Origin: Callorhinchus milii
Taxonomy: Eukaryota
Reading direction: 5' to 3'
Assembly: GCF_018977255.1 (NCBI RefSeq)
Contig: NW_024704749.1
Coordinates: 9,734,001-9,798,000, forward strand
DNA length: 64,000 nt
Below the pieces are notes generated by a model. The model was given only the letters and a program-made list of their open reading frames with translations. It had not been told where the DNA came from and ran no database searches. The position numbers and the translations under genes were made by a program. Below, piece after piece: positions 14,050 to 63,752 of this stretch (within the stretch, counting starts at the first letter, position 1; each line of letters starts with the position of its first letter).

Positions 14050-14760
14050 AAAACTGTTTGTGGTTGTGATTGATCACTTCCCATTGCCTGAAAACCACCT
14101 GGTGTGGCTGATGAAATGGATTCTGTGCTGAGTTTAAACCTCAGGAGAGGTTTGATACTGAGCAGCTACTCTGAGTCTCTGCTGGCAAATTCCTGGAGGA
14201 CGGAAGCGAGGGATCCAACCCCAGTCTCCCAAGTGTTTACCGGGAACGGCTCTGCCTTTTTCCTGCGGGAAAACTATCTGCAGAAAATACAGAAAATATT
14301 GTTTTTCAACCTATGTTTCCATGTTGTTTCAGCCTCGACACAGAATGAGTTTCAGGTCAATGAGTGTCGTCGATTCGTTGGACGCACTGACTTTAGAAGA
14401 ACACTCAGCTAAAGCGAGTCAGCGTTGTAAGTAAATAAATCCATTTCTTCTAATTTCATCTCTCCAGAACAGGGAAAGGTTTGCTGTGTGACTCCTGTCA
14501 TTGCATTCCCCCAGGACAGAGCGAACCAAAGCAGTGATTTGGTTTGGTCTGCCAGAGCGACATATACCACTTATGTAATTCCAGAGTGTATTAAACGCAG
14601 GGTGGCAAGAGCCAAGGCCAGTGTCACCAGAGTGTGGGTTGGGGGCACTGCCAATCGAAACCGCAGAACTTGCATTGGAAGTACTATCTGGCGTGCTTCC
14701 TACTGCTTGTCCTGCTAAGGCCACCATTACTCCCAGGTGGTTTCACTTCCAACTGGGTTC
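14050..14760. promoter_or_regulatory. Putative immune-type promoter/enhancer of the FIIND-CARD gene
   Basis: TGTGGT (RUNX) next to CACTTCC (Ets/PU.1) at about 14058-14080. GGCAAATTCC (NF-kB-like) at about 14183. Perfect Ets-IRF composite GGAAGTGAAACC on the minus strand at 14739-14750. These are short motifs, so chance matches are possible. Confidence 0.35.
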
Positions 14761-17700
14761 TGAGTCTGCTGATAATCGAGATTGAACTGACCGGTGATGA
14801 TTTTCTTTGCGATTCGGAATCTTTCTCTTTCTTTCCACTTAAAACCTCAGTTAACTGACTCAAAAGAGAAATTCAGTCTTAATTTAGAAGCTGGATTTCT
14901 GCAGGGATGGTTGAAGGAGACCTTCATAATTCTGAAGGGAATAGGAAGAATCTATATCCACTGGTCAGCAAGTCAATGGGTTGAGCCCATTGATTTAAGA
15001 TAATTAAGAAATAAGCCGTAGCTTTTTTTACACAAGGGATGAATAGTATGTGGAGATCCCATGGCATGGTGATTAAAATAGGATCCATGTAAGCTTTCCA
15101 AGAGGGAACTAGATGGAGATCTAAATAGGAAGGTTTTGCAGGGCTTTGGGGAACAGCAGGCAAATGGGACTGGATGGATTTGTCTTTAAATTTTTTGAAG
15201 CTCGTCAGACAGACACAAAGTACGCCTCCTGCGGTCATGTTGGCTAGCAAGTTACAAAATTGTTTTCATACAGGTAACCTTCCATTTGCAATATTTATTG
15301 AAGACATGCTATCAAGCACATTGGCAATCACACACAAACTAATGTTTTTGCTAATATTTGCCTTGAGGACTTCATCAGCCACTCCATTCAGGCTGAACAA
15401 TTGATTGAGAATGAAAGAAGTTACTAATTCAATAGTCTGCCTGTTTGAAATAATTTACCCACAAGATAATAATAATTTAGGTGTTGTATAGTTGATGAGA
15501 GTTAAGAATCTGTGAATTGACCCTACCTAATCTGCTGTGTTTTGTTTTTCAGTCGTTGACGATGATGTCATATACTTAGGTAATAATAATAATCCTTGCA
15601 TTTGATAGAATGTCATATCAGCAGAATGTCTCAAGGCTCTTGACAGGATGTACTGGACAGTGTGGTTTCTTGGTAACGTGTGTGTTACATTTTATATTGG
15701 AAGTAAATTGAGAATCCTATTGTGACTCAAGCACCTCTTTATATAAAAAAAGGATTTCAAATCTTTTACCTGGTTCGATTCCCAAATGCAAATAAAGCTT
15801 CTTGAGATGCTCTCCACTGTTGCACGAGATCAGGTGCAACTGAGATGCAACCATTGCCCTATAATGGTGGTCTCTCTCTTGAAAGCTGATGTATATTGTG
15901 AAGGCTTTTGCATCACAGCGTGGGATGTAAATCTCCAGAAATCCTATATACATCTCAGTAAATAAGCAAACTTAAGCAAACTGTGTGTAAAGATCAACAA
16001 TTTGTTATTGTATGAGGAACATCATTAAAATTATTGACTTCTGAAAAATCTCTCAGAGCAAGGAAGTTTGAGGTAATTGAAGAGTGTAGTGACTGGATAT
16101 TTCAATTCCACTGCAGGAATGTACGATACAATCAATTTACATTTATGTAGACCTACCACATCAGGAGGATGGCTCAGAGAGTACAGTTATGAATGTAGAA
16201 CCTTGTGTTGTGCTGCTTCTTTGGAAGTGTGGTTGAGACAGTTGACATATCTCCATTAGCTTTAAACTACTTTTTATGGTAGGTCTTTTTCTGTTGCGGT
16301 GAGTTAGTCAAACATATAGCACTTCAGAGTAAAGATTATTGATTGAAGCTACTGATGTAACATTTTTTACTTGTTTATTTGAGGATTACCATTAAGATTA
16401 TATATGTCTGAAACATGTATTTGCCTCATGTGTAGGAAAATCCAAGTCTGCCAATCGCCATTCCAATACAGGTATTCTTTATTAATTATTTTTCAGCTTG
16501 TGCTCCATATCTGTAGAATCTTGCCATGGTAAATATCTTTACAAATGTTGCTCATGCATTGGATTTAAAATGCTTCTGAGATTACAGTATTTGATGATTT
16601 TTTTACTCATGGGATGAGGACTGTCACCCTGCTTTTCTGTGATAATAATCCTTGCATTTCATACAGCATCTTTTCATTTCCTCGAGACATCTCAAAGCGC
16701 TCCACAGAATATACTGTAAAGATATACTCTAATCACTGGGGAAAGAAGGGGTTTTCTGTGAGGAAACTGCACCCATGTTGCTCAGAATCTGTCCAATCAG
16801 TAGCCAAGGGAATCTCTGATTATCCATCTCTGTCGAGGTTGATGCTCCAGTGCAGTGCTGTTAAGAGGCTTCAGTCAAGAAAACTTGTCCGCTGATGAGA
16901 GCACTATTGTTTGTCTAACTAGGATTATCCTACCCTTTAGGGCTTCAGCTTGCGGGGTAGCAGGAGTGGAGTGGGAAGAATCCCTGCTCCCCGTCTGCCC
17001 CTCCCTCAGTCCTGCTGACAAGCCAGGCTGGACTTTCACCAGAGGTGCGGTGGATTACTGCTGACACGTCTGACTCAGCAATGTTTCAGTTTCATAGTCC
17101 AATATAATAAAATAATATTACTATTTTTTGTTACAGTGCCTTATCACATTGTCAAAACGCAACACAGAATGTATTGCAAAGTGTAATGATTGTGTGTTTT
17201 TAGGCAAACGTGGCAACCAATGTGCTCGCAGCAATGTCCCACAAACAGCCATGACGTGAATGACCAGTTTTTATTTGGGGGTTTGTTGAGCAGGACACTG
17301 GGAGAAATTCCCTTCTCGATTCGAATGGTGCAGGATTTTTAACGTCCATTTGACATTAGCAACGCAATGTCCTGGAGTACTGCAGCCCCGCTGGCTCTGG
17401 AATTTGGCAAGATGTCAAACAACAATCATATGAAGCCTATTAATATCCATTTCATCCACCAAGTATGAAGGAGTTGGGTTGACATTGGGCAGGACATTGT
17501 GTACAGCATCGACATCCCCTTGCACATTTTTCTTGTAGTAATTTGTATTTGTACTTGTACATCTGTACAAGATGATCAGAATTAATCCCCCGCCCCCCCC
17601 CCCCCAGCGCCTCATGCTATCACTACTGTGAGAACATGAAAGTTTTTGTTACTTTCTGTGCACATTGTTGGACACTAAAGTTAGTTTATTTTGATTCATA

Positions 17701-20700
17701 TTATTCTACTTTCTAAAGCCGGACGGGAGAGAAGACCAGTCAAGGAATTTGAGGAATACAAAAGAATTTCTTGTGAGCTTTGTGGGGAAGAGGTAAGTGC
17801 ATAAACAGCAAAGTCTTTTACTGTTTCCAGTTAACTGTGGTGGTGTTTCACGTCTCTCCATGTTACCTTCAAGGATTCATCAAAATGGATTATGGTGGAA
17901 CCCAAAGTTCATTCAGAAAATGAGATGATGTTCAGGTAAAATAAAGCAAAATCTAACACTGAATGATTAAGTTCTGACCTCTTCTCTCTCGGTTATATCT
18001 AATAATAATAATGCTTGCATTTGATAGTGTTCCTTATGGCGTTCAGACCTCGCAAAGCACTTCACAGAATATTCTGTAAAGTGAATTAATTGTGATGGAT
18101 GCTGACATCATTTTTGTGCATTATCAATCAGGCTCACTCCAAAGTCTCCCACAAAGAATAGACAGGATTGAGAATGTGTCTCTTTCAGAAAACAGAATAA
18201 CTTTTGTTAGTCTTTGAAGCAATGCAGGACTTGGCCAAAAAAAGGTAATTTGCGATTTGAGGCATGAGATAACAGAGCACAGTTGAACGCTGAGAAAGCA
18301 AGTGCCATACTGAAGGTCCCACAATATGCTCATCCTAGATAAAATTTGATCTGATTTAAGACTGTCCCCTCACAATGTGTTCGGCAGTGCCAAAGCTGTA
18401 TAGCTTTGTACAGTTCCGTTCCAATAGCAAATGGCCATTTTCCTTGCATACCTGATTTAACCTTGCCAGCCAACGGTTCAATCTGTGTCACTGTAAAACA
18501 GTGGCCATATACATAGGGGGCCAAGACCATTGTTTTTCACAGCTGCGTACAACATCTCCGCAAGCAGCAGTTTTCGACTTGGGTAAGAGAAATACATAAC
18601 CCCCTCTGAAAGGAAGCAGAGAAAAGTTATCGGTGGTCAAAATGGCAGGCAGTCTTAAGTGGAGTGTATGGGGTCTGTACAGACCCTCCTCCTTTTTGTT
18701 GTATATTTTAATGACCCGCAAGCTAAAGCTCTTCCTGCTGTCCTCTCTCAGCTTACTCCCTCTCTAATTTCTGCATGTAAAACATTTACAGTTTTCTATC
18801 TATCGTTGACAATTGGTTTCTTTTTTCCTGATCATTTGACATTTTCACATTTGCCTCTGATTTTCCTGGTTTAATTTGCTGACATTTTCTGCTATTCCTA
18901 AGGTATGTATAGTTGCTTGCTTATCCTGTTTTGGATGGACGAAGACTGATTTATGCTGCTGAAGTAGTCTGTTTGTGGTGGGTGGCTAACAAAGCTCATG
19001 AGTCTGTCTCCTTCCCCACGAAGAAGCAAATTAGTCTAGATTGAGAACTTGTGTCTTTCAGAATACAAAATAATTTGTTAGTCATTTGTAGCAATGCATA
19101 AATTGGCAGATAAATATTAATAGTGCAATATATTAGAATTGACAATTCACACCCTTTTTAATCATTTTTGTTTAGTGTTTCTCTTCCAGGTACAGGCGAT
19201 TATGAATGTTCTAAGACTGGACTGAGATGGGAAACCAATACAAAAACTATCATTTCCTACAGATATGGCTCATGGAAGAAAGATGTTTCTATGATGAATA
19301 GCGATCTGCAAATCTGTGGACCATTGTTTGATTTCCACGTAAAAGGACAGGTCACAGCTATTCACCTGCCTCATTTTTTATGCTTGAAAGGTACATTATT
19401 TTCATTATTTCCTCTTAATTCAAACTTTTCATTCGCAATCAAGTGTTTTGATTTTTAGTTCAAGCTGATAATTACCCACTAAAGGGTGAATCCAATCATT
19501 GGGATAAACGCAAGTCCCAATCCATGTTCCACTTGACAGCTGCAGCTGCCCTGTGCAACTGTTGGGACAGCTTTTGGCAGGAGCTCAAAATATGGAACAA
19601 CAACTGGAGTGGGACAGAGACTAATTGCAGAGGTGATAGGAGCAGTAGCTATTGTGCATGGCATACATTGCAACAGCTTCAATAGGTAACATGGCGCAAC
19701 TTCACTGTGGAACTGGGTTGTCCTGACTCATACTGGCAATGTTGAATATTCATTCTCATTGTATATGCACAGCCTGTTTACAGATTCCTTACTAGAGATA
19801 TAATAATAATCTTTGTATTTGATAAGTGTTGTTTGCCATTGTAATGTCTCAAGAACAAATGGAGTTTACATAGCGTGCATATATGTGTCTCGGAGAGCTT
19901 TATTGGGAGAAACTCCCTCATTTTTTAATAATACCATGGGATAAGATTAACCACTACCTAATCAGGCAAATGGGTCCTCAGTTTAATGCCTGATCTGAAG
20001 GAAGGCACCACTAACAATACAGCATTCAGAGGGTTGCCAATTCAAGCCACAAGTCAGGGACTTTGAGCTCACACCATAGGCTAATACTCCAGTGCAATGC
20101 TGGGGATGCACTGCATTGTCAGAGGTGCCACCTTTGAAGAAGGCATCAAACTGAGGTCCCACCTGTTCGTGTGGACGTTAAAGATCTCCTGACGTTATTC
20201 AAAAAGAGGTGTCCTCTCCAGCAATGTCCCAGATAAAATTGGTCATTACTAACATGGCTATAGGAAATTGCTGTACCACGTTTGCCTACTAATATACAGT
20301 CACTACATTTTAAAAGTTAAATCTTGTGAAGAACTTTGAGAGTGTGACGACATGATGTGATGCATTGTATGAAATGCAAGAATTATCATTTCTGAGAATA
20401 TTCTTCACTGAAGTATGGAAAACCACATTTTGTTGTGTAGGTTGCACACCTAAGGATGAATTGAAAATTATTCATGTGAAAGATGGGAACTATTCACTCA
20501 TGAACCCATCAGCAATCAATGGCAGCCATGTGGAACTGAAGGCACCAAGTTTTTCTCTGCTGAGTGTTGTTATTTCGAAGGTTTCCTCGCGGCTGTTCCC
20601 TGTTCACACTCTGGCAATGATTTATCGGACACGGATGGTTGGAGAATTAACCCTCCACGTCTACTTTGTACCGAATGAATGCTCAATAATAAAGGTAATT

Positions 20701-23582
20701 TCTCTCTACTGCTGAAACTCATCAAATCATTCAAGGTTAAAATGAATCTTGAGGATACTAACCACTGAGTCTCTTTGCAGGCAGTTAACGAGCAAGAATC
20801 AGGTGCTATGAAAATTGAGAAACCTCCTCAGATAAAATCACTCAGTTATGGCAAAACCTATTTCTTGACCAGCCCTGCCAACGTCAATATTCTTCCACCA
20901 GTAAGTGCTGCTACAGTGTGCGTGGATGGCTTATTTCAGAAACATCTATTGGTGTGAGGGACAGATTTGACCTGAAAAGAGAAATTGCATGAAAGGACAC
21001 TGATCTCAACCATATTGATTCTGTGACGGGCAGACTATATTCTGGAAGAATGAAATCAAAATTAGAAGGGCATTCTTCATCCAAACTAATCTTGTGAGAT
21101 CATCAATTTTAGTGGAATCAGCATGTTTGGCAATAGTGCCTATTTAATATTAGTATAATGTTGTTGATGAAGGTGAAACAGTAGGGGCCCCACATAGAAT
21201 CCAGGGAAACCTTTCAGAGCTACCCATTTCTTAGATGCAAGTTTCAGAGAAAGGGCAGCTTGGCCAGAGCTTTTGTACAGCCTCAGCCACTGCCCCACCC
21301 TCTGACCTGGCTATACCCTGATTGACTAGCAGCTGCCTGAAGTGATTCCACCCCTTCAGGGTTCTGTAGACACATGGTCGACTGAGCAGGGATTCTGAGA
21401 TAACCACCATCTTAGGCTTTCTCTTTATCAACCACTTCAGCGCTCCAAGACACTATTCCGCATGAAGGGTGCTATATAAATGCAGGACCTTGTCATTATA
21501 ACCAGTTGCCGATAGTTTGGCAGAAATGGCTGGGTTGAAAACCATCTTGTACCCAGGAAAATCTCCTGTCTGGATGCACCCAGGAGAATATTGCACAATT
21601 AAAGTCTTTTTTTGTACTTTTGTTGCAGGCTATCAACTTCTGTTACTTGAGGTCTGATCAACGCCAACAGTACTGTGAAGTACATAGCCAAGATGAGAAT
21701 GCCAGCATCGAGTTAAAACTACGGCCGGAAAAAAAGAGCGATCCTCTCTGGGTGACCTTGCTGAGGCCAAGTAAGCATTGAAATGATCCATCCATAGTGT
21801 AGCAGTTTAACATACCAATGTCCTATGGCAGGGGACTAGAAAATACTGTTATGGTCCATTTGGCTGACCCCAAAGTAATTTAATCCATGATTATGTTATT
21901 ATTTTAAATATACTTTGATGTTGTGATGGGGAGATGACAGGGGTGGATATTCTCGAAAGTTGAAATCAAATGGGCTGAAGGGCCTTCTTAATCTGAACCA
22001 ATCTTGATTTCAATCAAATTAGAATAAATTCTCAGAGAAACCTTTCTAATTGCCATGAACTACAATATATTTTTGTTTCCTTAGTGGAGCTTCAAGTTCC
22101 TCCCAAAGTACCTTTGACTGCAAACCTTGGTAAGTCTTGGAGATTTTCTGCAGGGTAATTGTTAAAGTCATCTTATTCTAGTCAAAAGCCCTGGTGTTGG
22201 GATGAGTGTTTTGACAACTGCAATGTCTGATTTGCTCAGAAATGGTTGACTTTTCAGACCTAACAATACTTGCTTTTAAATAGACATGAACAATCCCATG
22301 ACACATTTGAAAAGAGATTTCTACTGGTGTCTTGGTCCATGATCTTTCAGATAAATTGGTCATTCACTTTGATGTGAAGTGCTATACAAATGTAGTTTGT
22401 TGTTGTGCCAAATTGGGATGCAGCTCAGCTTTTATTTTGGACTCACAGTTCCAAGGAATATGGTAAACATTCCTTGTTCTGTAACAGAATTGCCATAAAC
22501 ACCAGTGGTTTCCAATCTGATTTGTTTAGATCTTTGAAGTAGATTATAGTGCTAGTGATATAAAAGCAGTGGAAATTGCCTCCAGAGGCTTGGGTTAATT
22601 TTACACACTCACACCAATGTTACGTGGCTCACTCTATAGCATGGGAATAAGTTTAAAATGCAGGAATTTAGGATTTAACAAAAGTATAGCAGGAACAGAA
22701 TGGTAACTTTATATCTCTGTTGGGAAATTTCACTGTTGTTATTAAGGAAAGTGGATTGCAATCCTAATTCCACTTGTTGCTGTTGCAGACCCCCTCTTAC
22801 TAATGTTTTAATTCTCAGGGCTCATCTTGGAGGCAGTGTAAGGTATCATTGGGGTATGAAATCTTAAGTGTTTTGTAGTCACTTATCTCCGAGGTGTTCC
22901 TCTACTGCAGTGGTGGCCAACCAATAAAATACAATTTTCTTGATTGAATGTTTCTTGATTTATGGCATAAAACGAAAAATATTCAATCAAGAAAAAAAAT
23001 GGAAATAAAATATAGCCTCGGCTAATGTGAATGTTGAGCGGGCCACTTCTTGACACCCCCCACGGACCATTTTGGGGTTGGCCACCACTGCTCTATTGTG
23101 TGGTGAGAACCAGAACTAGATGTACAGTACTCCTAATATTGTGCTGAGTCAAAAAGCAATCTTGTATCTCATCTACTGTGCAGATTCAGAGAATACTGTC
23201 AAAGACTTTTGTTTAAAAAGATGTTGTTTTACCTTTTAATTCTAAGCAAATTTGCACAAAAGACATTTTTTTAAATTGTCACAATATCTATACTCCTGGC
23301 TGTGTCTGATACAGAACTGTTTCTACAGCTGTGGAGTTCATTAATCGGCACAAAAAAAGTATCATTGAGAGACTTGGAGTAATTGACCCTTACCTTAGAC
23401 ACTTGCTCGAAGAAAAAGTGATCAACGAGGATGAAGAAGAGGAAATTCGTATCAATCCAAAACGTACGAGAAGTAATGAAACACTAGTGCGAATGGTAAT
23501 GAAAAAAGGGCCACATGCCCAAGAGCAGCTTTACAGAGCCATGGAGACACATGATCCCTTCCTTGTAAAAGATTTGCAGTAA
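14345..23582 (+). CDS. CARD8-like FIIND (ZU5-UPA)-CARD inflammasome protein, about 434 aa, 12 coding exons (gene A)
   Basis: Exons 14345-14355 and 15209-15273 (both tentative), then 15553-15579, 16436-16471, 17719-17792, 17874-17935, 19176-19390, 20441-20694, 20781-20900, 21629-21770, 22085-22129 and 23329-23582. Phases are consistent throughout. FIIND signatures: GDYECSKTGLRW, GPLFD, IHLPHFLC, IIHVK, HVELKAPSF|SLL, LHVYFVPN, KPP, LWVTLLRP. C-terminal CARD: EFINRHKKSII...DPFLVKDLQ*. Confidence 0.88.
17120..17350 (-). mobile_element. SINE (DeuSINE-like) fragment
   Basis: Contains GCAATGTCCCACAAACAGCC and GGATTTTTAACGTCCA, both shared with other copies. Confidence 0.65.
20045..20390 (+). mobile_element. 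Near full-length diverged SINE
   Basis: TTCAAGCC...CAGTGCAATGCTGGGGATGCACTGCATTGTCAGAGGTGCC...GGACGTTAAAGATC...AAATGCAAGAATTAT. Homologous to copies at about 27915-28270, 30520-30730 and 58600-58900 (-). Confidence 0.7.
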
Positions 23583-24753: not shown

Positions 24754-27700
24754 TTAAGAAAATCTGTAGCCAATTAGAAAACCTGAAATTATACCAAAAA
24801 TTATACAAACCACATGAAGAAACCACATTCCTTCAGTTCTACGTGTTGCAGAGAAGCTCCCTGGCTGTACAGTTGTTAAACCAAATTGTCTTATACAGTT
24901 ATTACATAATTTGTACGAGTAGTTAAATTCCAAGTTCTGCACAAAGTCAGAATTATTTTTTAGCAATGCTTTATACAGTTCATCTTCTGCATCTTCTCCC
25001 TTATTCATTACTAGTTGAAGCATGGCTTTATTTTGTTGAATTTCTACATTATGAGTGACAATTTCGGACTCTTCAGATTTAGTGATAACATTTGTATCTC
25101 GTAAATGCAACAGGATAGGTTGAATTGTTTTGAGACAACAAATTATTTCCTTTTTGTGTCTATGAACAAAGTCTACACATCTTTTCAACTTCTTAAACAT
25201 ATCTGAAAGAAAAGCACAATGGTTAGAGAACTGTAAATTATATTGTTTATAATGACTGCTGCTGTTTTAAAAGGATAAAAAGAAGCGTTTTAAACTAGTT
25301 CCAGATACCCATATGTGTCAAAGGTAACATATTATAATAATCTTTGCATTTGATATCAAGCCTTACCCATTCATCAAGATGTCTTAATGCACTTTACACA
25401 ATTTTTTTTGCAAAGTGCGGTGAATCTGTATTGGAAGGAAATATGGCAGCCAATTTGTACACAGCATTGCATTCTAATGAAATAGAATGAACAGAAAATA
25501 CAGATTTCTTTCCCCAAACTATTATTTTCTTTAAATGGTTATGCATGTTTATTTTATATCTGAGTTTAGGTACATTAGCACTGACCTGGTCGTAACAATA
25601 TTTCCCACAACACATTGAGCTTGCTTCTTTCAGTCAAACACAGCTTAATGCTATATTTCGACTCCTGGATATAAACCTCATGGAATGGTTGCTGTTGTTT
25701 ATACCTGAAGTAGCTGAATTTTATATCCTATAATAACAAGAATTTGAGAGAGTATAATGCACAGGAACATGTGTTCAATGAAGGTACAGTCGGTGTAGCA
25801 ATAACATGGCAATTATCTGTAGAAAACCGATAAACTGACTTTACAATGACAATTGTTTTAATAAAATAATGAAAATAATTATTTCCTTATAGTTTTGTAT
25901 TTGAATCAAGATTTTTTTTAATTGTTTCAAGGATCTATTCATTTTGAAGAATCTATCAATAGTAAATAAAAACTTATCACAATAAATTCTGATCTGTCAA
26001 TACGTTATATGCCTGAGTGACCAATTTTATTTGGAGGATTGTTGACCCAAGACGCTTACCAGTGGTTTTATAGCTACATTTGAAAAGGATGTCAGCCTAT
26101 ACTTCTTGCCATAGTAAACTGATGTTATTTGTGGAGGCTTTTGAATTTTCAGGGACCTTATTTCTTTTTCCTGCAAGTCAACTGCCTGAAAAGAGTTAGA
26201 AAAAGATAACTTTTGTTTCCTTATATGATTATATTTTAAAGCAAAATACAAAAAAAACACCACAATAAGTAATCTGCACCTAAATAGTTCTCAGATGCTC
26301 TATTCTAATTATCACTGACACTGACAGAAAAGCAACATTCATATTAATTAATTACATATTAATTAGATTCACATTCATATTCATTATTGGTCTGGCAAGA
26401 ACCACTGAAATCAGGGAGAATTAGGTTGGAGGGGATAGCAATGGTAGGGAGTGGTAAAACTTAGGGTTTGAAGATCTTGGTCTTTCTGTTGGGTTATTGG
26501 AAGCCGGTAGAGGCTGGCGAGGGTGCGTATGAAGTGTGCAAAAATTCCTGCTTATTTTTAGATGGATAACCGAAAGTGATTATTAATTATTTCTATTAGT
26601 TTGACAACTATAAACATTAAGGTTTTGTAGCAAAATCCACAAATATTTTCAAGTACAGTACAACGTCTCATTGTTACTGAAGTTTCATTTAAATGCACAA
26701 GCTATGTATTAACTTTGAAATATTTAACTTTCCATAGTTAAATCACACCTATCACTCCGCCTCGCCCCCTCCTTAGTCTCCTTCAAGTCCCGCCTCAAAA
26801 CCCTCCTCTTCGACCATGCCACCAGCCACCCCACCCTTTCCCCTCCCCTCCCTTCTCCCCCCCTGACCCCAGCTCGGGTCTGAAATGCTGTACACTGTCC
26901 AGTGCCTTGGGACATTCTCCTGATGTGAAAGACGCTATATAAATGTAATCTTATTGTTGTTGTTAAAAAATAATATAAAAATTGAATATTTTCAGTTACC
27001 TGTATTAATGAGCCATCATTTGGTAACACATAGACATGAAGAATTGAACAATCAGCTCGAAATGTTTGATATATCATTATGACAGCATGAATAGCCACCT
27101 GATGGACCTGACCAAGGATGACACCCATCAAGGTCAACGGTTGATTTCTTTGCACGACATGAGATAAATGGATTTCTGATGGATTTTCCAATACTAAGGT
27201 ATCATCTCTGAGGCACACAATACAATATCTCGCAGAATGTATTGCTTCCCCTGCACCTAAGAATATTCAAGTTTTATCAATTGCATCAATAAGGTATATT
27301 ACACCACATTCACAGTAAAATAAGTCACTTCACTTTGGAGCCTGAGGCTGCACCAGTACATATCAGGTGTATGGATGGCAATTAAGGCTCTTAAAGATTG
27401 TAATGTATCAAGGCCAGAAATGTAGTGCAATGCTTAATAATTGACTTCCCTAATAGAACTATTACTACTTGAAATATTTACATCCCATAATCAAGGTAAG
27501 GCTATCAAACTGGATTATAATTTATACAATTAATAGTCACAGGAAAGTGCAACCTGATCAGATACTTAATATCTGAATTCAAAGCTTTGAAATTTTCTGG
27601 GCTCATGCAACAATAGCAAGTTAGTTCTTTGATCAAACATGCATTATAAGGCATTGGGTGGTTGTGGCACTCTTTTGGAAAAGCAGCAAAGCAAAAATAA

Positions 27701-28890
27701 CAAATGGATAATCTTTGCTTTAATATAGTGCTTATAATGCTAAAACATTTCAAATTGCTTCACTGAGATTTGCTGTCAAGTGCAGTAATTGTTGGCAAAC
27801 GTGGCAGCCAATGTGCATACAGCATAATAATAGGCAAAATTTGGAAAACACCATAAAAGACCAAACAAAGCCTTTAGAAAGTCGTACTTCCTCTCATCAA
27901 CTGATTGTAATGCCCTTCTGGCTTAGTTAGTAACTCTTGTCTCTAGGTGATGAGGCTCTTGGTTCAAGCCCCCCGTCGAAAGCTCATGGATCTAGATTGA
28001 CACTACAGCGGTGCATGTGTGGGGGGTGGGGAGCACTGTATTTTTGAAGATAGTACCCGTTGCATCAATGGTTAAACTAAGCTCTGCCTGTTCAGGTGGT
28101 TATTAAAGATCCCATAACACTATTGTAAAATAATGTCCTGCCCAACATTCTTCCATTTAAATTAGTCATTCACTTCATGACTGTGGGACTCGAGGCAAGA
28201 CTACTGCGTTTTCCTACAAATAGTCATGATTTTGATAGCAATTCCCTGTGAAGCACTGGAGACATTTTTACCTTTTACTAATGTCAAACTAACGAAGTAA
28301 TATACAGCATGAGAAAACAGACCACCGCATGTAATAAACAATCAGAGAAATATTAAACATATACAACTTTACAAGATACCTGATTCACAAATGAAATGAG
28401 GAAGATGAACAGCAGCAATATCACCATAACTAACACGAATGTTGAACAATGGTCCTCCGATTATCCAACATTCTCTTTGCACATCAGAAATATAGTCATC
28501 CCAGGAGTTATACTCGTAAAAGATTCTAGCATTGGATTTCGATTCCCATCTCAGTCCTGTTTCAGCACATTCATAATTGCCTTTCTCTGGTAAGGTAATA
28601 CTTTCAAAGAATATTAAAAATGTTAATATGGGCACTGATTTTAAGTAAATAGAATCAAAATTCATACACAATACTTCTTATGATATTTGCAATTCCTGCC
28701 ATATTTTGTCCCATTTACAACAACTTGCATTTACATAGTGCTCTTCAAAAAGGTAACATCTCAGAGTATCGGTTACAAACTACAATGAATGGAGCTAAGA
28801 TTGCACAAATTTTACTTTCAGAACTTACCAGAATTTCCCATTTGCATCTTCTGGAATAGTCGGCTTAACAATGATCCACTTTAGTTTATC
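24754..28890 (-). CDS. FIIND#2-CARD-hydrophobic tail module of gene B
   Basis: GNYECAETGLRW...GGPLFNI...VHLPHFIC; LHVYVLPND; KPPQI; LWEILLRP. CARD DFVHRHKKEII...LYKALLKNNSDFVQNL. Tail MWFLHVVCIIFGIISGFLIGYRFS*. Exon sizes 62/221/257/126/142 parallel gene A (62/215/254/120/142). Confidence 0.9.
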
Positions 28891-31800
28891 CTGGAAACGA
28901 TGAAAATAATGTATGAAAGAATTCCAGCGTTAACAATGTATAAAGTTGAAAGTTTAAACACGGTGTAATTGTGTCACCTTTCTAATCTTGGGTATTCTAC
29001 AGGGACAGTGTTCCTTTTCAAAGTAACAGACTACATCTGTAATGCCTCTGCACACTGCTGTTGGAAATAGATACAATACAGTAAGCAATCAGACTATTCC
29101 CCCAAGAAAGATGCGCCTCATTCTGCTTCAACACATTAGCTGGATACATAGTGACCTTGGCTGAAGACGAGGAGTTCAAGAATCTTGCCTTTAATGGGGA
29201 TGCAAATGAGCAGTGTACTGTGGCAATAGCAGATGTAAGATATCATCCCCTCAATAAAAAGGGTCAAGGCAACAGTCAACAAGGAGCTGAAGTACCTAAA
29301 AACAATGGTGAAAGTCTCCAACGACGACAATATTGGTTGCCCGACATGCAAAGAAGCATTTAGCACAATCAGAGCCATTGAAAGAAATGGAAGAAGCAGC
29401 TAAGTATCTGGATAAGATACAACCACTAACTGTCCCTAACTGCAATATAAGAAAAACAGTGAAGGCTGCTCTTTTAAAGCAACAAATATTAAGGGTTTAC
29501 ATAATGAAATATCTTTCATGCACTGCTAAAGCAAAATAGTAAAATGTTACTGAATGAATTACCAGGAGCTTCAAGAAACTGCATTTGTACACAGATTTCA
29601 GGTCCCAGCGTAGTGCACTGCTGACCGGTTTTCACCGCTGAAATAAAGTAAAAGACATTTCACTAAAAAAATCAGAGTTGTGATAAGAGAAAGAAAAAAC
29701 CTGGAAATACAGTTGAGTTTGTAATGGTATTATATAATAATAATAAATCTTGCATTTGATATATTCTTCTAACTGCAAAACGTTAGCAGTTCCAATCTAG
29801 TCCAAGACTAAATGAGATCTACAAACACACTATATAGATGTATATCGTTTCTTTAGGACCGAGACACCACTAACCAGAGAGGATTGATAAATCCTTTATC
29901 CTGTTACACACTGCAAGGGACATCGCATAACAGCTTCTGCAGCTACTGATGCTCCCCTCCTTACAAAATCTGTCTACATTTTTCTTCAATGTGTGGACCC
30001 TGTTCGCACGAAGTATCACGTAGGAGCCTTTATTAATTACGAAGTGACCCAGACTAACAGGCCAGGGTGATTTTGTAATAAAGGAAGTGACCTAGACTTG
30101 TTAGTGTTACCTGAATACGAGGGTGAAGATTTCAAATTTTCTGTTTGTACCGCAATATCTGAGGCCACAATTCCCTGCTTTTGAAGAAGTAATTGATCTG
30201 AAATACAAAAGTAATAATAACTATGAATAACACAGTGCCAAATCATTAAGAGCTCATTCTTGCACTTTCTGGCTTTTTATATTTTTATATTTTAATAGCT
30301 ACTGCCTTAAATTAAGTGGTTGAACAAAAATAAATAAATATACAAGATATTTACCTAAATCAATAAAAGATTGTATATTGTCTGTTTCTGTAGCAGAATC
30401 AAGCAGAAATGCCCTGAATTCCTCTGGTGTATATTTACCTGAAAGATAAAAGCAACATCAATTATAAAGTACGTTGAAAAAGCATTTCTATCACCATCAA
30501 ACAGAGAAAACAATAAAGTAGAGTGGATCAATTGGTAGATCTCTCACCTCTGAGTCAATTCTCACAATTATGGGATTCAAGCCCCACATCATGACATAGA
30601 CAAAGTCTAAATTGAGATTCTAGTGCAGTGCTGGGGATGTATTGCATTGTTGGAAGTCCTGTCCTTTAGATGAGAAGTTGAACCAAGGCCCCAACTGTCT
30701 ATTCAAGTGGATGTTAAAGATCCCAATTTCCAACAGAAAGAGGTGGGCTGGGTTGCAAAGGAGCTAAGGGAAATGAATTAATGGCTTTATCGGTAATTAA
30801 AGATGGCTTTATCGGCGATGATAACTTATGAGATGGTGAGGCCCTGGTAATCACCAGATCAAGGAGGTGACCCTGGAAACACATCCCTCCTCCACCTTGC
30901 TAGAAAGGCATAAAGTAAATGGCTGATCAAAATGAATATATACAATATTTATTTAAATCAGCAAAATATTGTGTATATGTTTCTGTAGTGGTATCAGACA
31001 GAAATGCCCTTGGGGTTTTTTTTTACCTGAAATATAAAGTCAACACCGATTATAAACCACCCTTACTGGCAACTTGTTCCAGTCACTAATTACCTGCTGA
31101 TGATGTTTAGCACACCACATGAGCTATTAGTGTGATGCTTGTCTCCTTAAAGGACTATCCTGCACTCTGCTTTTACAGAGTTTTGACACAATCTATATAG
31201 GCCTCTAAGCATTTAAAATACTAATATACAGGCTTACATTAATGAAAAAGATTTTAAATGTACCTGGGTAAGGGGCTGAATAATGTAAAAATGTGACATT
31301 TAGTACTGACAATACACTGATGAGATTTTTAGACAAGTCTTTCAGGCCGACAAATTATTTTCAATAACAGCTAGAAGATAATTTGTTGCTGGTGCAGAAC
31401 AATTGCTGTGTTTATCTACATAACATTATACAGGATTTCTGTGTTTTGGTGTGGGAGGGGGGCAGAGTCTGAGTGAGGGGGAGCTCTGTAAAGAACGGAG
31501 TGCAGTCAGAGGGGTGGAAAGGGAGAAAGGAGACTGGAAGGAATGCTCGGGAACTCTGCTCTGGAAACTGGTAGAGACTCAAGACCTTTCGAACTGTAGC
31601 TGTGAAAAGAGCCGAAACAACATATTGACTTGTAACAGTCATTCTCTTTCTTAATAGCACTTGCATCAGCGAAGCGTGGTTAAATCTACAATCTTTAATT
31701 GCTCCGAGATGCTACCCGCATGAAGCAGACTATATTATATATATATACAGCAAGTTGTTGCTGTATCTCTGTGGGTAACTGGACTCTGTTAATTACAATT

Positions 31801-34800
31801 ACAACAACATCTGAATTAGACTGTCGCTGCGATTTCTTTTTTAAGAAGATTCTCAATCCTGTAGCATTAATATTATCCATGCAGGTGCCTGAGCTGAGCA
31901 AGACAGTTGGATACAACTCGTCCATTCTCAGGGGACAGAATTTGTGACACATTCATGTACAGATAGTAAATTACATCCCAATTTCCAATACCCCTAAATA
32001 GTTCTTGGACTTGAAGCAAATTAAGAGACCAGCGTAGTCACACATTTCAACATAAATGTACACAACATTTACCTAAAGCAGTGTGAAAAGATTCTATGCT
32101 GTCCATTTCTGTAGTAGAATCTAACAGGAGTGTTCTATATTCCTCCAGAGTTGCTTTATCTAAAATATAAAAAAACATCAGTTACAAAGCATACTGAAAA
32201 AGTATGAGTTTCAATCTCTCAAACCAATTCCATTGTTGCTAAATCAGTTGTAGTTTGTGTGTAGAGGAGCTGGGGGGAACGGCAAGGTGGGTATTGGAGA
32301 AATTCTTCTCATATCACTGCTGAAACAGATATAGATTTAATGAATAATTTTACTTAGTTGCGAAGTTGGAAATTTTAATCTTTCTGTTTCTTTACCCATT
32401 TTTTTTCCCAAGAGCTTGATTATCTGAAATGTAAAGGAATACCATGAAGAGAACTGACGGTTCAATGACATTGAAACAAAACAATGTTAAGATAAAACAA
32501 AAGTTAAAACAAAATAGTTTGTATCCATATATAAGTGAGAAACAAGCATGACCCTTCTCATGGCGTATTGAATGAAAAAGTTTGAAATGTTAGGTGATTG
32601 AGAATGAAAATTTTAATCTTTCTACTCTTTCACCTATGTGTTCTCCGAGAACTTCATTATCTGAAATGTAAAGATACTGGCATTTAGGGATAATAACACA
32701 ACAACAACTTCCATTTATATAGCACCCTTCATGCGGGTTAGAGTCTCAGAGTGCTTAATAGAAGAGACGGAAGATGTTTTTCAGACCCTTAAACCTTTTG
32801 TTATCAATGTTGAATCATTCAGTCCATATATTTGGCCAATTATGTTGTTAAACATGAAGCATTATGTGAGCTACCGTTCAACAAATATTTAAGACTGTTA
32901 ATATTCCTTAATTATAATTATGGTGAACATATTTATAGAAATAACTTATTTTGGGAAATGCACATAAGAGGTAGGAAATAAGGTAGGAGACATTGGAAAA
33001 GGACGGAGGAGGTGGAGGGGAAGGCATTGATATCCTCCATCCAGTACCAACCCTCATAACAGTCTAATACTGGATCTGGACTCCCCCTCTCATCCAGAAC
33101 TTCCACAGTTCAACCATTTCTGAGGTCTGCCCACACCTCAACAAAGACCTATGATCTTAATAACCCCATTCATTGAGGTCCAGATTGTTTAAAAGACTCA
33201 TCAAGGTGTTAAAAAAGTGCCCTTTGTCTTTGAAACAATATCTCTGACTATCTTAGTTCTCAACACATTTGTATCAGAATGTTTAGAAGACGATGCCTTT
33301 TTTAAAAAAATTCCATGAAGTGGCTTGACAGCTTTTGATTAAAGAACATAAAATGTTAAGTTCAAGAATAAATAAATTATCTAATTGGATATTATTCAGT
33401 GTTTTTCAGTTTTAGATATGATGCTAAAAAAAGAATAGACGTGTGTACATGTAGACACTGAACAACTTTTACCTGAATCAGTTTGAAATGGAGTTTCTTC
33501 CGTTTGTGTACCTATATAATTGAACGGAGCTCTGCCTTCCCCAAAAGCTTGTTTGTCTGAAATACAAAGTCAACCCATTTAGGAAATATGACCTAATTGA
33601 GAGATCCTCATGTGAAAGATCACTGGTGTAAGCAATCAATGCGTGGTTATAATATTGAAATAGAACAAAATAGATATTTCTAAAAGAAAAAATAAACCTT
33701 TTTCTGAATCAAGATGTTGAGATTCTGTTGTCTCTGTCTGTATACCGATATCACATAACACGGTACCTTGATCTCCAAGAGTTTTTATAACTGAAATACA
33801 AAGGCAAAAATATTTTTAAATAATTGCACTAAAATACCAAATCTTACTTAAAATGTCATACGAAAAATCTTTGCTAAAGCCTTTTTTCTCTTGGGGGGAA
33901 AAGTCAAAGGACCCAAAGTTTATTTGCATTCCCCAAGCTCAAAGACCAATGCCAGAGGGGCAGAACAAGAATAAAAGTACAGCTCTTTTACAGCGTCTCA
34001 GGTCTATGCTTACATATCTATAATTTAGCTGGACATTTGCAGCTAACAGTAACAACTTCAGTCGGAATTCAATGGCCACTAAAACATACACTATAAAATG
34101 AATACTGAATACAAAAAATGAATACAAAAGAATTAATAAAATAAATTCAGGAATGAAAGAGAAGGCAAAATACATCTTCTGAACCTTTACCTTTCTGAAT
34201 AGATAGAAACTGCTCTTGAATGGAATCAGGAATGGTTACTGGTGCTTTTAAGAAAAATACAGATTTGTTAGTTCTATTATAAACATCCAACTTCTTTTTT
34301 TGTGAATTTGAAAATTACAAACTAAATAAAAATTCTGTTCCAGCTGTCTGATTGTGAAGAAAGACCAATGAAGAGGTGGTCTCATCAAGAACTTGATTTG
34401 CATTGCTGTATAGCAATGACTTGGACTTGAATAGATTTTTCCATGTTTCATGGACAAAGATTGCTTCAAATCAATGACATGGATCAATGAGCAGGAACGA
34501 AAGGAGGGGAATTTCTGGGCGCTGACCAAAGGCACGGTCAAATAAATAAGATTTCAGAGGGTTTTGAAGAAAGCAGACGCAAAGTGAAGGGATGAGTTCT
34601 GGAGAATGAGGGCACAGTGACTGAAAGCTTGGTCGCTGATAAACGATAATCATTGTGTTTGATATAGCAGCTCATCACATTGTTGTGGCTAGGGAATTGA
34701 GCAATAGTTCAGGAGTGAGATTTTTGGGGCAGGTAGAGTACAACTGTGAGGAGATTTGAAGATTCGGACAAGGATCATGCATGTACTGAAGGTGCAGAAA

Positions 34801-37800
34801 TTATTTAACGGATATATTTCCAGGTAAAGCATTCACATATAGATATCCCAAATAAAATTAAATATGCATACCTATCTGATGACAAGATCTTTGGTCATCA
34901 ATTGAATCCACTTTTGCATCTTCACAAGGATCGGAAACACCTAAAATATTCTTGGCTTCTAATGAAAACAAAACTAAAGATTTTATTTGTTGTTTGACAT
35001 CAGTTTTTGCAACTTGATATGTGTGAACTCAAGCACTTGACTAGCAGCACAGTGCAGTCAGTGGGTTTATGCCAACAGACTGGCGAATCAAAAGCACATC
35101 AACAAGGGCCTAACCCTAACCCCAAGTAGACATCTAAAGACATTTCAATAAGACACTAACACAATCCTAAACAACTTTCTGTCAATGTATAGGATATAGC
35201 AGCAAGGAGATAAATAAGGCATTATTTAGGGTGGAGCATTCTTAAACATAGTACTAAAATACCTGGTTCTGATATTGCAGTTTCCAGCATTGATTTGACT
35301 TCGGCTAAAACGCTGCTATGTTTACATTCGATTTCTGCATCATGAACAGATTTACTTGTTACCACAATAATCTATAAAGATATTTCCTTTCCCACATACA
35401 AATAATATTTTTCAAGATATTAAATAACTGGATTAAATAGAGATGAAAACGGTTGTAATACTTCAAAAAGAAACTATCCAAAATTAAGGAGGAACCAACT
35501 CTAATTTCATTGTCAGATGTGATTCAAAACCAGACTGCACACCAGAGAAAATTGAACATTTCCTGAGGGCATGTTATAATAATCTTTGCATTTGATATAA
35601 CATTGAAACATCTCAAAGCACTGAATGCAAGGATTATTATATTACCCTTATCTACATGCACTGCCACTTTTAATGACCTGTACACCAATTGTGATTGGAA
35701 TTATTTTGAAAGGTATTATTGTTGGTAATAACCAAGCCTGCATAAAAGATGGACGAATGAAGTTGTTTTCATTATAAGATTACGACATTAAGATTTAGTA
35801 GCAACTGGCTTATATCAGAATGTTTTAGTTAAAGTAAGTACATACAAACAATTCTATAAACAAAAAGTTAGAAACGTACCTGACTGATTATCCATTTCTT
35901 CAAGTATATGTTTGCAAACATCATCTTCATCTGAAATACATTTAAGATGTAAAATGGTCATATCATGTCCCTGAATTGCATTAGGTACGTATTCCTCTCT
36001 ACTCAGTTACCAAGATATTTTCCTATTTATGTTTCCAATATACTTGTATAATTCACAAATAGCAATATAGATTATAATGAATGAAAAAAATTAAAATATA
36101 AATTTACTAAAATGTTTATGTCATAGATATTTGCTCTATATGAAGTATGACATGACTATTCTCATTATAAACATATACAGATTTGGCACAATGACATCTG
36201 GCAAAAATGGTGCACATGTCTTTTCCTTCCCCCAAAAAAAGTTTAGCCAAAAGTTGAATTTAAGAAAATAAGTAAATTTATACCTGATTGATCATGAGGC
36301 AATCCCAAATTTTCCAGTAACATTCTAACTTGGCATAAAAGAACTCTATATTTGCAGATACGCTTTGAACCTGGAGGAATACAAGAGTTCAAATATTTAC
36401 ATGAAATTACAAAGCAGGATGATTGACATAAAACATGATTTTGGTTCATAGCTAAGAAGAGATGACCAAATAAGTGACTCACAGTTTAAAGCGGTCATCA
36501 TGCACACACCACTAACTATACCTGATGGATGGGATGATACAAGGAAATTTGATTTCACAGATGGAGGTTTGCAAACATCTTCTCCATCTGAAATATAGTT
36601 ACAGTGTTTCACTTTACAGTATATTCCGTGAAGAGCTTTGAGACATCTCAACGACATGATAGTGCACTATATCAAACTCAAGGATTTTTATTATTATTAT
36701 TCTTTAGCTTTTCAATCTATTTCAACCAAAGCAACATACATTACAATTTGTTGCATCGATTAAATATGTTCAACATTTTTTGCAATTACTTAAATGTAGT
36801 GAAGAATATTATTTGAAGATGAGTATCCCTGAAGTAAAACACTAAAATTATACCTAGTTGATAGTGAGATGGTCGTACTTTTTCCAGTAGTGTTATGACT
36901 TCACATAATTCAGCTCTATGCTTACAAACTTCTGATTCTGAAAAAATGCAAGAATTATTATCATTAGATAAAAACAATTTTGCAATTCTGATCTTCACTA
37001 ATATTTTTTCTCACATTACAAATAAAACTATGATAATTCTTCACAACAGATATCTCTTCTAAGGACCTCTTCAGATTCTTTTCCCCAGTCCCACAGACAG
37101 CTGGAACATAGAAAGTGCTAAGTTCTATCCACATCAACATGTTAGACTGACTGTATATGCCACCTGAAAAGGATGGGGTGTCAAAATTCTGTACCATAAT
37201 CTCCTATCAGAGGGAAGCTTCATCCAGGAACAATGCCCTCTGCATAACTCAGAGATCAAGAAGTACAAAAAGAAAATAAACCTTACCTCCATTGGAATCT
37301 ATAGTTTCATGTTGTATAGCTTGTGTAGCAGCTGCCATATCTGTTTCTTCCTCAAAAGGTATCACATCTAAAAATGTATTTAAATGTTAAACACATTTAA
37401 CAAATACAGTACCGCAGTACCAATACTGTATACTATAACATATCAGGCTATGTTTCTGAAAGTTTGTTAACTGAAAGAAGAAATAAGTGATGAAGGTTAT
37501 AGCAATTAATTATTTAACTATAATCACATTAGTTTACAAAAGACAAATTGACTGCCCAATTCTCCGTAGATAGCAAAGAATATGATAGTGGTACTATGTG
37601 GGAAGAAACATTGGTAATCAATTTTCCAAGCATAATGCCAAAATTGTTGAATGTTATTGAATGTTCATAAATTTAATTACAAACAATACAGGATACATGA
37701 TAGTATATAAGGGTTTCAAATTCTTTTTTTATTGATTTTGTCTGAAGATTGCAATCCTGAAAATAGGAGCAATAGAATGCAGTGAATATTGATAAAAGTA

Positions 37801-40800
37801 GCTTACAAATATGAAATGGTTGTTAAATTAGTCTTGGATCAATACCCACCATATTCCACTGACCTTAGGGCCAAATAAAAGATTCTAAGATTACTATGCC
37901 ACTCAATAAATGTAACATATAACATTATAGGATATACTCTGCTGCATCTGCCCCTTTCCTATAGTTTACCTGAATGCAATAGTAGTAAACTTCCAGATGC
38001 AACATTTTTTTTAATGTTACAGATATTAATGTTTTACATGAAGTGGGTTAGTTTCATAAGGTCATGTAGTTCTTTGTTTCTTCTTTCAGTGGATAATCTT
38101 CATGTTTTGGATCTCGATAGTTAGTCTTGTCAGACTATTAATTATAATCCTTCAATCCTTCAATAATCAAAGCACTTTATACGATTTTACTGAGAACTAG
38201 AATGACTACATTTGTAGGCGAACGCAGCAATTTGTTGTGCATAGCAACGTCCCACAAACAGCCAAGACCAATGAATAACCAATTTTAATTGGGGCTTGTT
38301 GACTAGAACATTGGGAGAAACTTCCTTCTCTATTCAACTGTGGATGGTGTGAGCAGTTCTGTAAATCCTGTGAAGCATTTTGAGACATCCTCCCAATAAA
38401 AAGCATTTTCAATATTGTTTTATTTACCTGAAAACAATAGTGGTAAACTTGTAGCTGTAAAAAAGAAAATTTAACGTTAAAGACCATCATTTGTTTCCTG
38501 AAGCAAGTTAGTTCCACAAGGACTAACAGTTCTGTTATTTCACTCAGTTTAACTGTGGATTGTGCTAAAGCTCTGTTTGACCCCATCCTCACCAAATAGA
38601 CAAGTAGACTGGGTTAATTGCCATGTTTTTATTTATATCATCTAACTCAGCAAAGACTGAATCTTAGCAAAGACTGAACCAAGATTGAATCTAGGACCTT
38701 TCGTTGATTGGCTCCAAACAGTGCATTCATTCACCCAGTAACTCCACAATATAGTTTAATATGTTCTATCTTCATTCTCGCTTTCAACCGCCTTAGGGTC
38801 CCTCTGGATTTTAACCTGACAACCTTCTTTCTGCTAAAGTATCAAAAGATTCTGGGGGGCATTATGTAATCATTTACTCCCTTTCCTGTTCTCTCTATTT
38901 AATCTACATTGTTGCAGACGTTGGAGTAGTTGTTTATAGAGAAGGATACATAAAGTAGAAACATGTTCTCTTCACAAACAATGGATTCCTCACCTCGTTG
39001 CGGTTCAAATTCATCTAGCATAAAAAAAGGAAAAAAAATTAGGTATAGCTGTGCAAAAGGCGTTTTATTTGGTTTAAATTATATTTCCAGCACAACCTTA
39101 CATTAGGGAGATCTCTTTCACAGTATGTCATTAACAAAGCCCACTTAAAATTTAGGGTGCAACATTGTAAAAGGTATTTCTTGCTTTATAGTATTGTGTG
39201 AGATCTTTCCGAATAAAAGTATGGTAAGTTTTATAACGTTCATAAATTTAATTACAAATAATCAGAGCAGCAAAGTTCCTCCTGCCTTACGTAAATGGAG
39301 TAAAACAATAAAAATAGATATTTTTCAGGTAAAATAAAAAACATTGGATTTCTGTTCAGTACACACATGTTGAAAAAGGGTATAAACTCTCTCTTCGGAG
39401 TAATACTTTAAGAACCACATAAACCTCAACACATTTCTGGCTTGACCTGGCGTTATAATACAATGCATATAGTAATTTTTCTACCATTTCTCTATGCATT
39501 TTTGTAAATACACAGTTCAAGTTGAACGCAAGCCAAAGGGAATGGTTACACTTCTCATTGTTTATGGATTGAGAGAACAAACTAAAAAAAATGAAACATA
39601 CCTTCAGAAGAATGGTAAGGTTGATGAGGTATTGGCTGTATATTAGATGACATACTTCTAATTTCCTGTAAAGCTTCCACATCTGAAATTTTTAAAATAC
39701 TGTAGTAAGCAAATGTGCAGTATAAGCTAGAACTAAAAGATTCTATTTTCTGAAAGTGTAGAAATGTAAGCAGATATAGTTCCAGAATCACCATAGGTCT
39801 CAAATGGAAAAATCGAATAAAAAAACAATATATAGCATATATTACCAGAAAAGGTTCTATGCACATTGCTATCTGCAAAAAAANTCAGAAATAATTTTTA
39901 GAAATGTTATTTTTTAAATAGCGTGAACAATTGCATATCAAAAGGATTCTGCTCTGCAATATACAGGCTGCAAAAGTGCTAACTAAGTTTTTTGCCTCAA
40001 TTTTTACTAAGGAGGAGACAGGTAATTTATTTGATTATATTGGAAGGGGAACTCGAGAGTGTTGCAGAGATAAGTTGTAACATCATTCGCATCACTACCA
40101 GCATAGTTGCCCAAAAGCTGTACATAGGTAAATAAGTCTCAGGGACCAGATAAATTGCATCCCAGGATCCTTAAGGATCTAATGGAAGAAGTTGCAGGAA
40201 CTCTGGCACAAATCTTCCAGAAATCACTGAATACCGGAGAGGTGCCTGGAGACTGGAGAAAGGCAGATGTTACTCCTATTCTTTTTTAAAAACAAAAGGC
40301 AGCAAGAATGACCCCAAAAACTACAATCCAGTGCGTTTGACCATTGTGATGAAGCTATGCAGACCCTTATTGATGATACGATCATGAAGCATCTGGACAG
40401 AAACAAAATCATAAAAGATAGCCAATATGGGTTCATGAGGGGGAGATCTTGCCAATCTAATTCACTGTTTTTTTTTGACAGTGAGCTTGATAAGGTTAAG
40501 ACAGTGGATGTTGTATATTTAGATTTCAGTGAACTCAATATTCAGAACTTGAATGTACAATCTGATAAAGACACAAGAGTTCTGAGCGGCATGCACAATG
40601 ACAACGGCACATGAAATCTGATTGGGTGTCTTATATTGTCCATTGCAATTGGATTTCATAGATGGAAATCTTATACATCATAATCTCTAAATTACCAGAT
40701 TTTATTTTTGCAAATTAGTGAAATAACTGTTCAAAATAATTTCTGCTTATTTGTAGCAAGCAAAAGTAGTAATTACCTGAAACGGAAGAACGAATTCCTG

Positions 40801-57786: not shown

Positions 57787-63752
<5,966 letters not shown>

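Follow-up and report, generated by a model that had tools for sequence, protein, structure and literature searches.

FIINDs are understood as self-cutting switches, and the uncleavable forms known are laboratory mutants or, in the mouse, a dead allele. The ZU5-UPA domains of UNC5b and ankyrin, the latter with ZU5 in tandem, have structural and not cleaving roles, and MAVS and CARD19 are tail-anchored adaptors with a CARD and a C-terminal membrane helix and no FIIND. The catalytic triad of the FIIND is named as E1195-H1186-S1213 (PMC9700037). Replacement of Ser by Ala abolishes the cleavage of CARD8 and NLRP1, and Phe to His cripples it; in CARD8, H270 is crucial and E279A lowers cleavage without abolishing it (PMC3210808). 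Mutation of H942 in rat NLRP1 led to a complete loss of cleavage (PMC8081665). Tests of Phe to Leu or Ser to Thr were not found in the excerpts of the openly licensed FIIND literature. CARD8-S297A, which cannot be cleaved, occupies site A of DPP9 and has a dampening effect on freed CARD8-CT (bioRxiv 2021.01.13.426575, excerpts), and the engineered uncleavable forms, CARD8-S297A and NLRP1-S1213A, suppress the freed UPA-CARD. In mouse Nlrp1b, an uncleaved FIIND-CARD self-associates and recruits caspase-1 poorly (PMC3334886, excerpts).

A window of 64,000 nucleotides of the elephant shark, Callorhinchus milii (contig NW_024704749.1, positions 9,734,001 to 9,798,000), harbours a minus-strand gene, here gene B, which is convergent with a plus-strand CARD8-like gene, gene A. 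Gene B is predicted to encode two FIINDs, the CARD-distal FIIND#1 and the CARD-proximal FIIND#2. It resembles CARD8 (PDB 7jkq/7jn7) in the ZU5-UPA-CARD order and fold, in having no NACHT-LRR and in a disordered region before the FIIND, but differs in a Cys for H270, in L|T for F296|S297, in an extra upstream ubiquitin-like domain (UBL) and FIIND, and in a hydrophobic tail after the CARD. NLRP1 (rat 7crw/7crv, human 6x6c) shares the FIIND-CARD module and is the best structural and sequence match, whereas the gene B model has no NACHT or LRR, and neither of its FIINDs has the full E1195-H1186-S1213 triad. CARD8-S297A, NLRP1-S1213A and mouse NLRP1B allele 3 are like FIIND#2 in being a full FIIND, in its case most likely also without a cut; NLRP1B3 is, however, one polymorphic allele regarded as non-functional (PMC6683174, excerpts), whereas FIIND#2 is fixed in the lineages of chimaeras, rays and sharks. 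UNC5b and ankyrin ZU5-UPA share the fold family with FIIND#2 (Foldseek 3g5b 1.8e-5, 4d8o 5e-3) at approximately 10% identity, FIIND#2 being, unlike these, a recent FIIND derivative that shares 42% identity with FIIND#1 and likewise with gene A. The CARD with a C-terminal hydrophobic tail recalls MAVS and CARD19, a likeness of layout and not of compared sequence.

A UBL before a FIIND is also found in proteins of tortoises and lungfish (P0007, P0036, P0083, P0096), and UBL-FIIND proteins were observed in several jawed-vertebrate lineages (P0036 and P0096 in lungfish, P0007 and P0158 in turtles, and P0083). In contrast to the chondrichthyan proteins, none of the UBL-FIIND and tandem-FIIND proteins of tortoise, lungfish, teleost and reptile matched gene B in its linker motifs or its tail. 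Tandem FIINDs, UBL-FIIND proteins and a natural uncleaved allele (PMC6683174, excerpts) are thus already known. No description of gene B or its architecture was found in the openly licensed main texts of PubMed Central and bioRxiv, among the best 20-25 matches of several listings, nor is the architecture described in the excerpts of PMC13159474 or PMC11258412. The phrase "ubiquitin-like domain" together with FIIND was not found among the openly licensed literature matches listed.

Gene organisation

The gene B model consists of 39 exons encoding 1,343 residues, all with GT-AG boundaries and an open frame throughout, in the predicted order ubiquitin-like domain, FIIND#1, acidic linker, FIIND#2, CARD and hydrophobic tail. 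It is collinear with the Narcine protein P0003 (UBL, FIIND, linker, FIIND, CARD) in an end-to-end alignment, 43% over 1,433 columns. The first ~220 residues of P0003 include an integrase piece, probably a modelling error. No NACHT or LRR was found in a Pfam scan of P0003, the gene B model of the window having been scanned in pieces.

The first coding exon (49292..49574, as all gene B features on the minus strand) encodes the ubiquitin-like domain (Pfam ubiquitin 3e-7; 38-43% to ray proteins), and intron 1 carries a long C-rich low-complexity tract (48670-49270) right after the donor of this exon. Four short exons between 45204 and 48430 lead to FIIND#1 and have a counterpart stretch in P0003, P0009 and P0022; a frameshift suspected upstream of FIIND#1 was ruled out by exon 45274-45204. 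A broken LINE-like reverse transcriptase lies on the plus strand in a gene B intron (46413-48034; Pfam RVT_1 1.8e-6, below the family cut-off). FIIND#1 is encoded by five exons (43037..45080), keeps the His (44147-45) and F|S (44069-64), and has Leu (44120-18) at the triad Glu.

The acidic linker of ~475 residues is spread over 22 predicted short phase-1 exons (29563..42793), several of them picked by eye, the last of which are present in P0001/P0167, and it is collinear with Narcine P0003. Candidate exon 32423-32352 carries a stop and the neighbouring copy 32660-32634 was used instead, and candidate 35373 was replaced by 35334. Linker exons appear duplicated, with 32660-32634 and 32423-32396 as one set and 32159-32073, 31027-30960 and 30438-30355 as another; one copy per set looks unusable, owing to a 28-nt length or a lost donor. 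Two short exons upstream of FIIND#2 (29057-28978 and 28890-28829, together 28829..29057) are present in the elephant shark RefSeq model P0001.

FIIND#2 starts with a ZU5 exon (28380..28600; Pfam FIIND 2.2e-23), continues with the exon spanning the ZU5/UPA junction (27000..27256), identical to part of P0001 in a protein search, and ends with two UPA#2 exons (26185-26060 and 25727-25586, together 25586..26185). The last exon (24754..25202; 51% to ray and catshark proteins) encodes the CARD (about 25170-24925; Pfam CARD 1.3e-8), a CxxC spacer and the hydrophobic tail. The RefSeq model of gene B in elephant shark ends before the CARD.

The FIIND#2 catalytic site

At the position of the catalytic His, FIIND#2 has a Cys (TGC, 27215-27213), a replacement that requires two base changes, and its junction reads Pro (27140-38), Leu (TTG, 27137-35) and Thr (ACC, 27134-32), that is P-L|T in place of S-F|S. 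The triad Glu is kept (27188-86). Between the His and F|S, FIIND#2 aligns with rat NLRP1, human NLRP1 and CARD8 without a gap, which fixes the register. The initial annotation had quoted the catalytic stretches of FIIND#2, FIIND#1 and gene A and claimed His>Cys, Phe>Leu and Ser>Thr for FIIND#2 in an exon with intact frame and splice sites. All three quoted readings match the codons, the alignment with human NLRP1 and CARD8 bears out the three substitutions, and 27000-27256 is exactly one GT-AG exon.

Besides these residues, the domain has the marks of a FIIND. In P0001, Pfam FIIND and UPA-FIIND scored 109.4 and 56.1 bits against cut-offs of 25.8 and 27, respectively. The AlphaFold blocks of the FIIND#2 domain are mostly 83-98 with a lowest value of 71, in a model without the last third of UPA, and the best Foldseek matches of this model were rat NLRP1 (2.7e-13) and CARD8 (7.4e-9), the top five all being NLRP1 or CARD8.

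Verification of the substitutions

Contigs of four runs from three studies, one run perhaps being the source of the assembly, were compared with 25000-44999, a stretch that does not reach the tail on one side or the UBL exon and the four exons after it on the other. In the pieces listed, the Leu and Thr codons were covered in all four runs and the Cys codon in three of the four, with zero differences. The sole variant listed in the FIIND#2 exon, at 27228, is synonymous, and a variant of run X1 in the FIIND#1 His codon still encodes His. Runs X5-X7 are only presumed to be RNA, no run being recorded as such. In record 26 of X7 the ZU5 exon runs directly into exon 27256-27000, and in record 9 of X5 the latter exon is followed after 267 nt by the CARD exon, a spacing that fits the two predicted UPA exons (126+142-1); both joints look spliced.

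In the UniProt model A0A4W3JMI4 (P0002), this FIIND#2 position reads His and the tail is missing. This His appears to be a patch made of pieces of the intron around 27947 and 27715 (minus strand). A splice variant with the His back in place, as P0002 and a candidate acceptor at 27207 might suggest, was rejected, the intron pieces having no proper donors and being skipped in X7 record 26. The concern that the substitutions are private sequencing errors can be set aside, as independent runs agree and the orthologs carry the Cys. The substitution cannot be seen in the UniProt model, and gene models of the locus in public databases are fragmentary.

Orthologs of FIIND#2

The lineages of chimaeras and elasmobranchs split roughly 400 million years ago. 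Beyond elephant shark itself, word-based protein searches retrieved Narcine alone. The Cys, Glu and Leu of FIIND#2 are common to all four species compared, elephant shark, the ray Narcine, Scyliorhinus torazame and S. canicula, which count as three independent lineages because of the 95% identity between the two catsharks. The models of Hemitrygon and Amblyraja end before the catalytic exon and were left out of the count. The residue at +1 is Thr in elephant shark, Ala in Narcine and Ser in both catsharks. An invariant loss of the base combined with a drifting nucleophile is the pattern predicted for a dead site, and in the ray, with its Ala, a hydroxyl nucleophile is excluded. The identity between elephant shark and elasmobranchs is 61-63% for FIIND#2, similar to the 60-67% for FIIND#1, and FIIND#2 is therefore not decaying. 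In the FIIND tree each ortholog group was supported at 1.0, while the order of duplications was weak (0.16-0.26).

FIIND#2 is thus most likely a folded, non-cleaving FIIND, judged from its sequence across these lineages. The proposal of an uncleaved FIIND#2 made on elephant shark alone gains from His>Cys and Phe>Leu in 4/4 species and from the Ala at the nucleophile position in Narcine. Cleavage through Thr, offered there as the lesser option, is not the conserved mechanism, as the +1 residue drifts.

FIIND#1 and gene A

In FIIND#1, TF|S is invariant in 4/4 species. The His is present only in elephant shark and is replaced by Tyr in 3/3 elasmobranchs (Narcine, Rhinoraja and S. torazame), and the triad Glu position holds Leu in elephant shark and Gln in the same three elasmobranchs. 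The Rhinoraja FIIND#1 model has a confident predicted fold. The initial annotation held that the distal FIIND keeps its catalytic residues, which is correct for the His and F|S in elephant shark; the Glu is absent, however, and the elasmobranchs have both His>Tyr and Glu>Gln. The contrast of a live distal and a dead proximal FIIND is, on these residues, seen only in elephant shark and is not conserved. The conserved function of gene B probably does not depend on canonical cutting.

Gene A encodes a CARD8-like FIIND-CARD (14345..23582, plus strand; P0005/P0160 mapped by tblastn) with His (20473-75), F|S (20551-56) and Met (20500-20502) at the triad Glu, and has no hydrophobic tail. Two UBL-FIIND proteins of lungfish fall into one clade with FIIND#1 and gene A (support 0.905); their sites read His-Leu-F|T and Tyr-Gln-W|S. 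The clade of FIIND#1, gene A and lungfish UBL-FIIND may tolerate the loss of Glu, and elephant shark FIIND#1 may for this reason still cut, if weakly. The locus offers a natural triad series, His-Leu-Ser, Tyr-Gln-Ser, Cys-Glu-Thr/Ala/Ser and His-Met-Ser, which can be used to weigh each residue.

Catalytic residues among related FIINDs

As background, the 7 gene B and ortholog proteins were removed from the best 150 of 681 relatives, leaving 143 proteins with 157 FIINDs, 150 of which had all three positions aligned. At these 150 sites from the best relatives, the His was present in 139, the Phe in 140, the Ser in 143 and all three in 128, and the triad Glu in 129. At least two residues were lost in 5/150 and all three in 1/150. 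His together with L|S was found at seven sites, and Thr at +1 at a single site, where the His was present. Altered FIINDs are consequently not rare among the best 150 of 681 relatives (22/150), but the triple change is. Tandem FIINDs were found in 8 of the 143 proteins drawn from this set, some with one or both sites altered. In P0008 (Astyanax), a FIIND-FIIND-CARD protein, the first site reads Cys and F|I and the second Asp and F|S, the His being absent at both. P0136 (Alosa) is modelled as FIIND-caspase-FIIND-CARD with a Cys at the His position of the first FIIND, and may be a fused annotation.

Linker, CARD and tail

The modelled part of the gene B linker has low pLDDT throughout (AlphaFold). 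It contains three matches (33732..33752, 33498..33518 and 30139..30159) to the LC8 motif [TVI]Q[TV][DE], a consensus taken from PMC3078936, and three matches were found in each of three linkers (p 0.0002-0.0008 versus 5,000 shuffles). The motif was sought after having been spotted by eye, and the matches in the ortholog linkers weigh more.

The CARD is spliced to FIIND#2 (X5 record 9), and beyond it follows a hydrophobic stretch of 19 residues with GxxxGxxxG (24772..24828), ending 5 residues before the stop, which is a predicted tail anchor. The GxxxGxxxG motif is present in the tail of 4/4 species, and the CxxC spacer separates CARD and tail in elephant shark. The mean hydropathy of the tail is 2.4 in elephant shark and a moderate 1.77 and 1.55 in orthologs, and in 3/3 orthologs a beta-rich FIIND stretch outscores the tail on the same scale. 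The best ESM Atlas score for CARD plus tail was 0.76, a lead only. The picture of an uncleaved FIIND#2 joined to a CARD given in the initial annotation is probably right as far as FIIND#2 is concerned, but the UBL, the LC8-type motifs and the hydrophobic tail went unreported there.

Proposed role and alternatives

The explanation we favour, and consider probable, is a chondrichthyan protein of ~1,340 residues, UBL-FIIND#1-LC8-motif linker-non-cleaving FIIND#2-CARD-tail anchor, that serves as a membrane-tethered dimeric scaffold or brake. A FIIND conserved at 61-63% with a long-lost His argues for a cleavage-independent job. Lacking the His base, ZU5#2 would very probably stay covalently on UPA#2, closing the release of UPA-CARD of the NLRP1/CARD8 type. 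The tail would then plausibly hold the CARD on the membrane, and retain it there even after any cut, while LC8 and the glycine-zipper helix would pair two chains. More tentatively, the protein could act as a brake similar to engineered uncleavable CARD8, helping DPP8/9 to trap freed UPA-CARD, for example from gene A, and the UBL could set the turnover of the protein.

The equivalents of L278 and E279 of the DPP9 interface are both kept by FIIND#2 in 4/4 species, and FIIND#1 has neither in any of four. Against the brake step, FIIND#2 of 3/3 elasmobranchs has Asn in place of the Tyr of the UPA-UPA interface (CARD8 Y406). A complex prediction of FIIND#2 (P0002 4-253) with the gene A UPA (P0160 204-338), made without alignments, reached a score of 0.02 against a threshold of 0.34 and speaks neither for nor against their binding. 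A bolder version, which we regard as unlikely, is that a membrane-anchored, LC8-dimerised double pseudo-FIIND CARD protein has been a built-in brake of the FIIND inflammasome since before the chimaera/shark-ray split, with the UBL setting turnover so that loss of the brake could be a danger signal for gene A.

It is improbable that the locus holds two genes, one for the UBL and FIIND#1 with a short tail, the other running from the linker through FIIND#2 and the CARD to the hydrophobic tail and transcribed from a promoter of its own within the linker. Models are split in S. torazame, end early in Rhinoraja and are split or truncated in S. canicula, Amblyraja and elephant shark as well, the lungfish UBL-FIIND models have no CARD, and no contig among the joints listed bridges FIIND#1 to FIIND#2. 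The split models start or stop in intron-looking sequence, however, both halves are joined in the Narcine and Hemitrygon models, and the donor of the last FIIND#1 exon is in phase 1 and leads into an open series of phase-1 exons. We give similarly little credence to FIIND#1 being the working cut site of an activating sensor, in which degradation on the UBL side would strip ZU5#1 and free a membrane-bound UPA#1-linker-FIIND#2-CARD that clusters and signals, with FIIND#2 as a spacer. The His>Tyr and Glu>Gln in 3/3 elasmobranchs speak against this, as does the poor caspase-1 recruitment by an uncleaved FIIND next to the CARD in mouse Nlrp1b (PMC3334886, excerpts); on its side are the TF|S, invariant in 4/4 species though the His is not, the His of elephant shark, the merely lowered cleavage of CARD8 E279A (PMC3210808, excerpts) and the UBL-FIIND-CARD of tortoises with a complete triad.

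Cutting by FIIND#2 through an altered chemistry, in which the invariant Cys, assisted by the kept Glu, attacks a bond between Leu and a small residue and +1 may be Ser, Thr or Ala, would fit the constancy of Cys, Glu and Leu and the always small +1 residue in 4/4 species, and the His position adjoins the scissile Ser in rat NLRP1 (PMC8081665, excerpts). The Cys is, however, shorter than His and probably cannot reach the bond, the backbone-straining Phe is lost, and the excerpts of the FIIND papers cited here describe +1 nucleophiles only, which leaves this chemistry very unlikely. Slow cleavage through Thr in elephant shark is just as hard to credit with no His base in FIIND#2, and Narcine has Ala at +1, although N-O acyl shifts can generally use Thr (PMC3210808, excerpts), the FIIND#2 Glu is kept and the one background site with Thr at +1 (1/150, from the best 150 of 681) occurs with a His. 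Assembly errors or a decaying pseudogene piece have a negligible chance of explaining the substitutions: the His of A0A4W3JMI4, which would point that way, is apparently intronic and spliced past in X7 record 26, the independent runs match the window and the orthologs share the Cys.

Neighbouring genes

The convergent pair of gene A and gene B is accompanied in the window by a member of the Transmemb_17 family (5325-5765, minus strand), an acylphosphatase (9549-10103, minus strand), a member of the Mpv17/PMP22 family (53358-54241, minus strand) and a family B DNA polymerase exonuclease domain (59476-63153, plus strand). The latter two are presumably PXMP2 and POLE, respectively.
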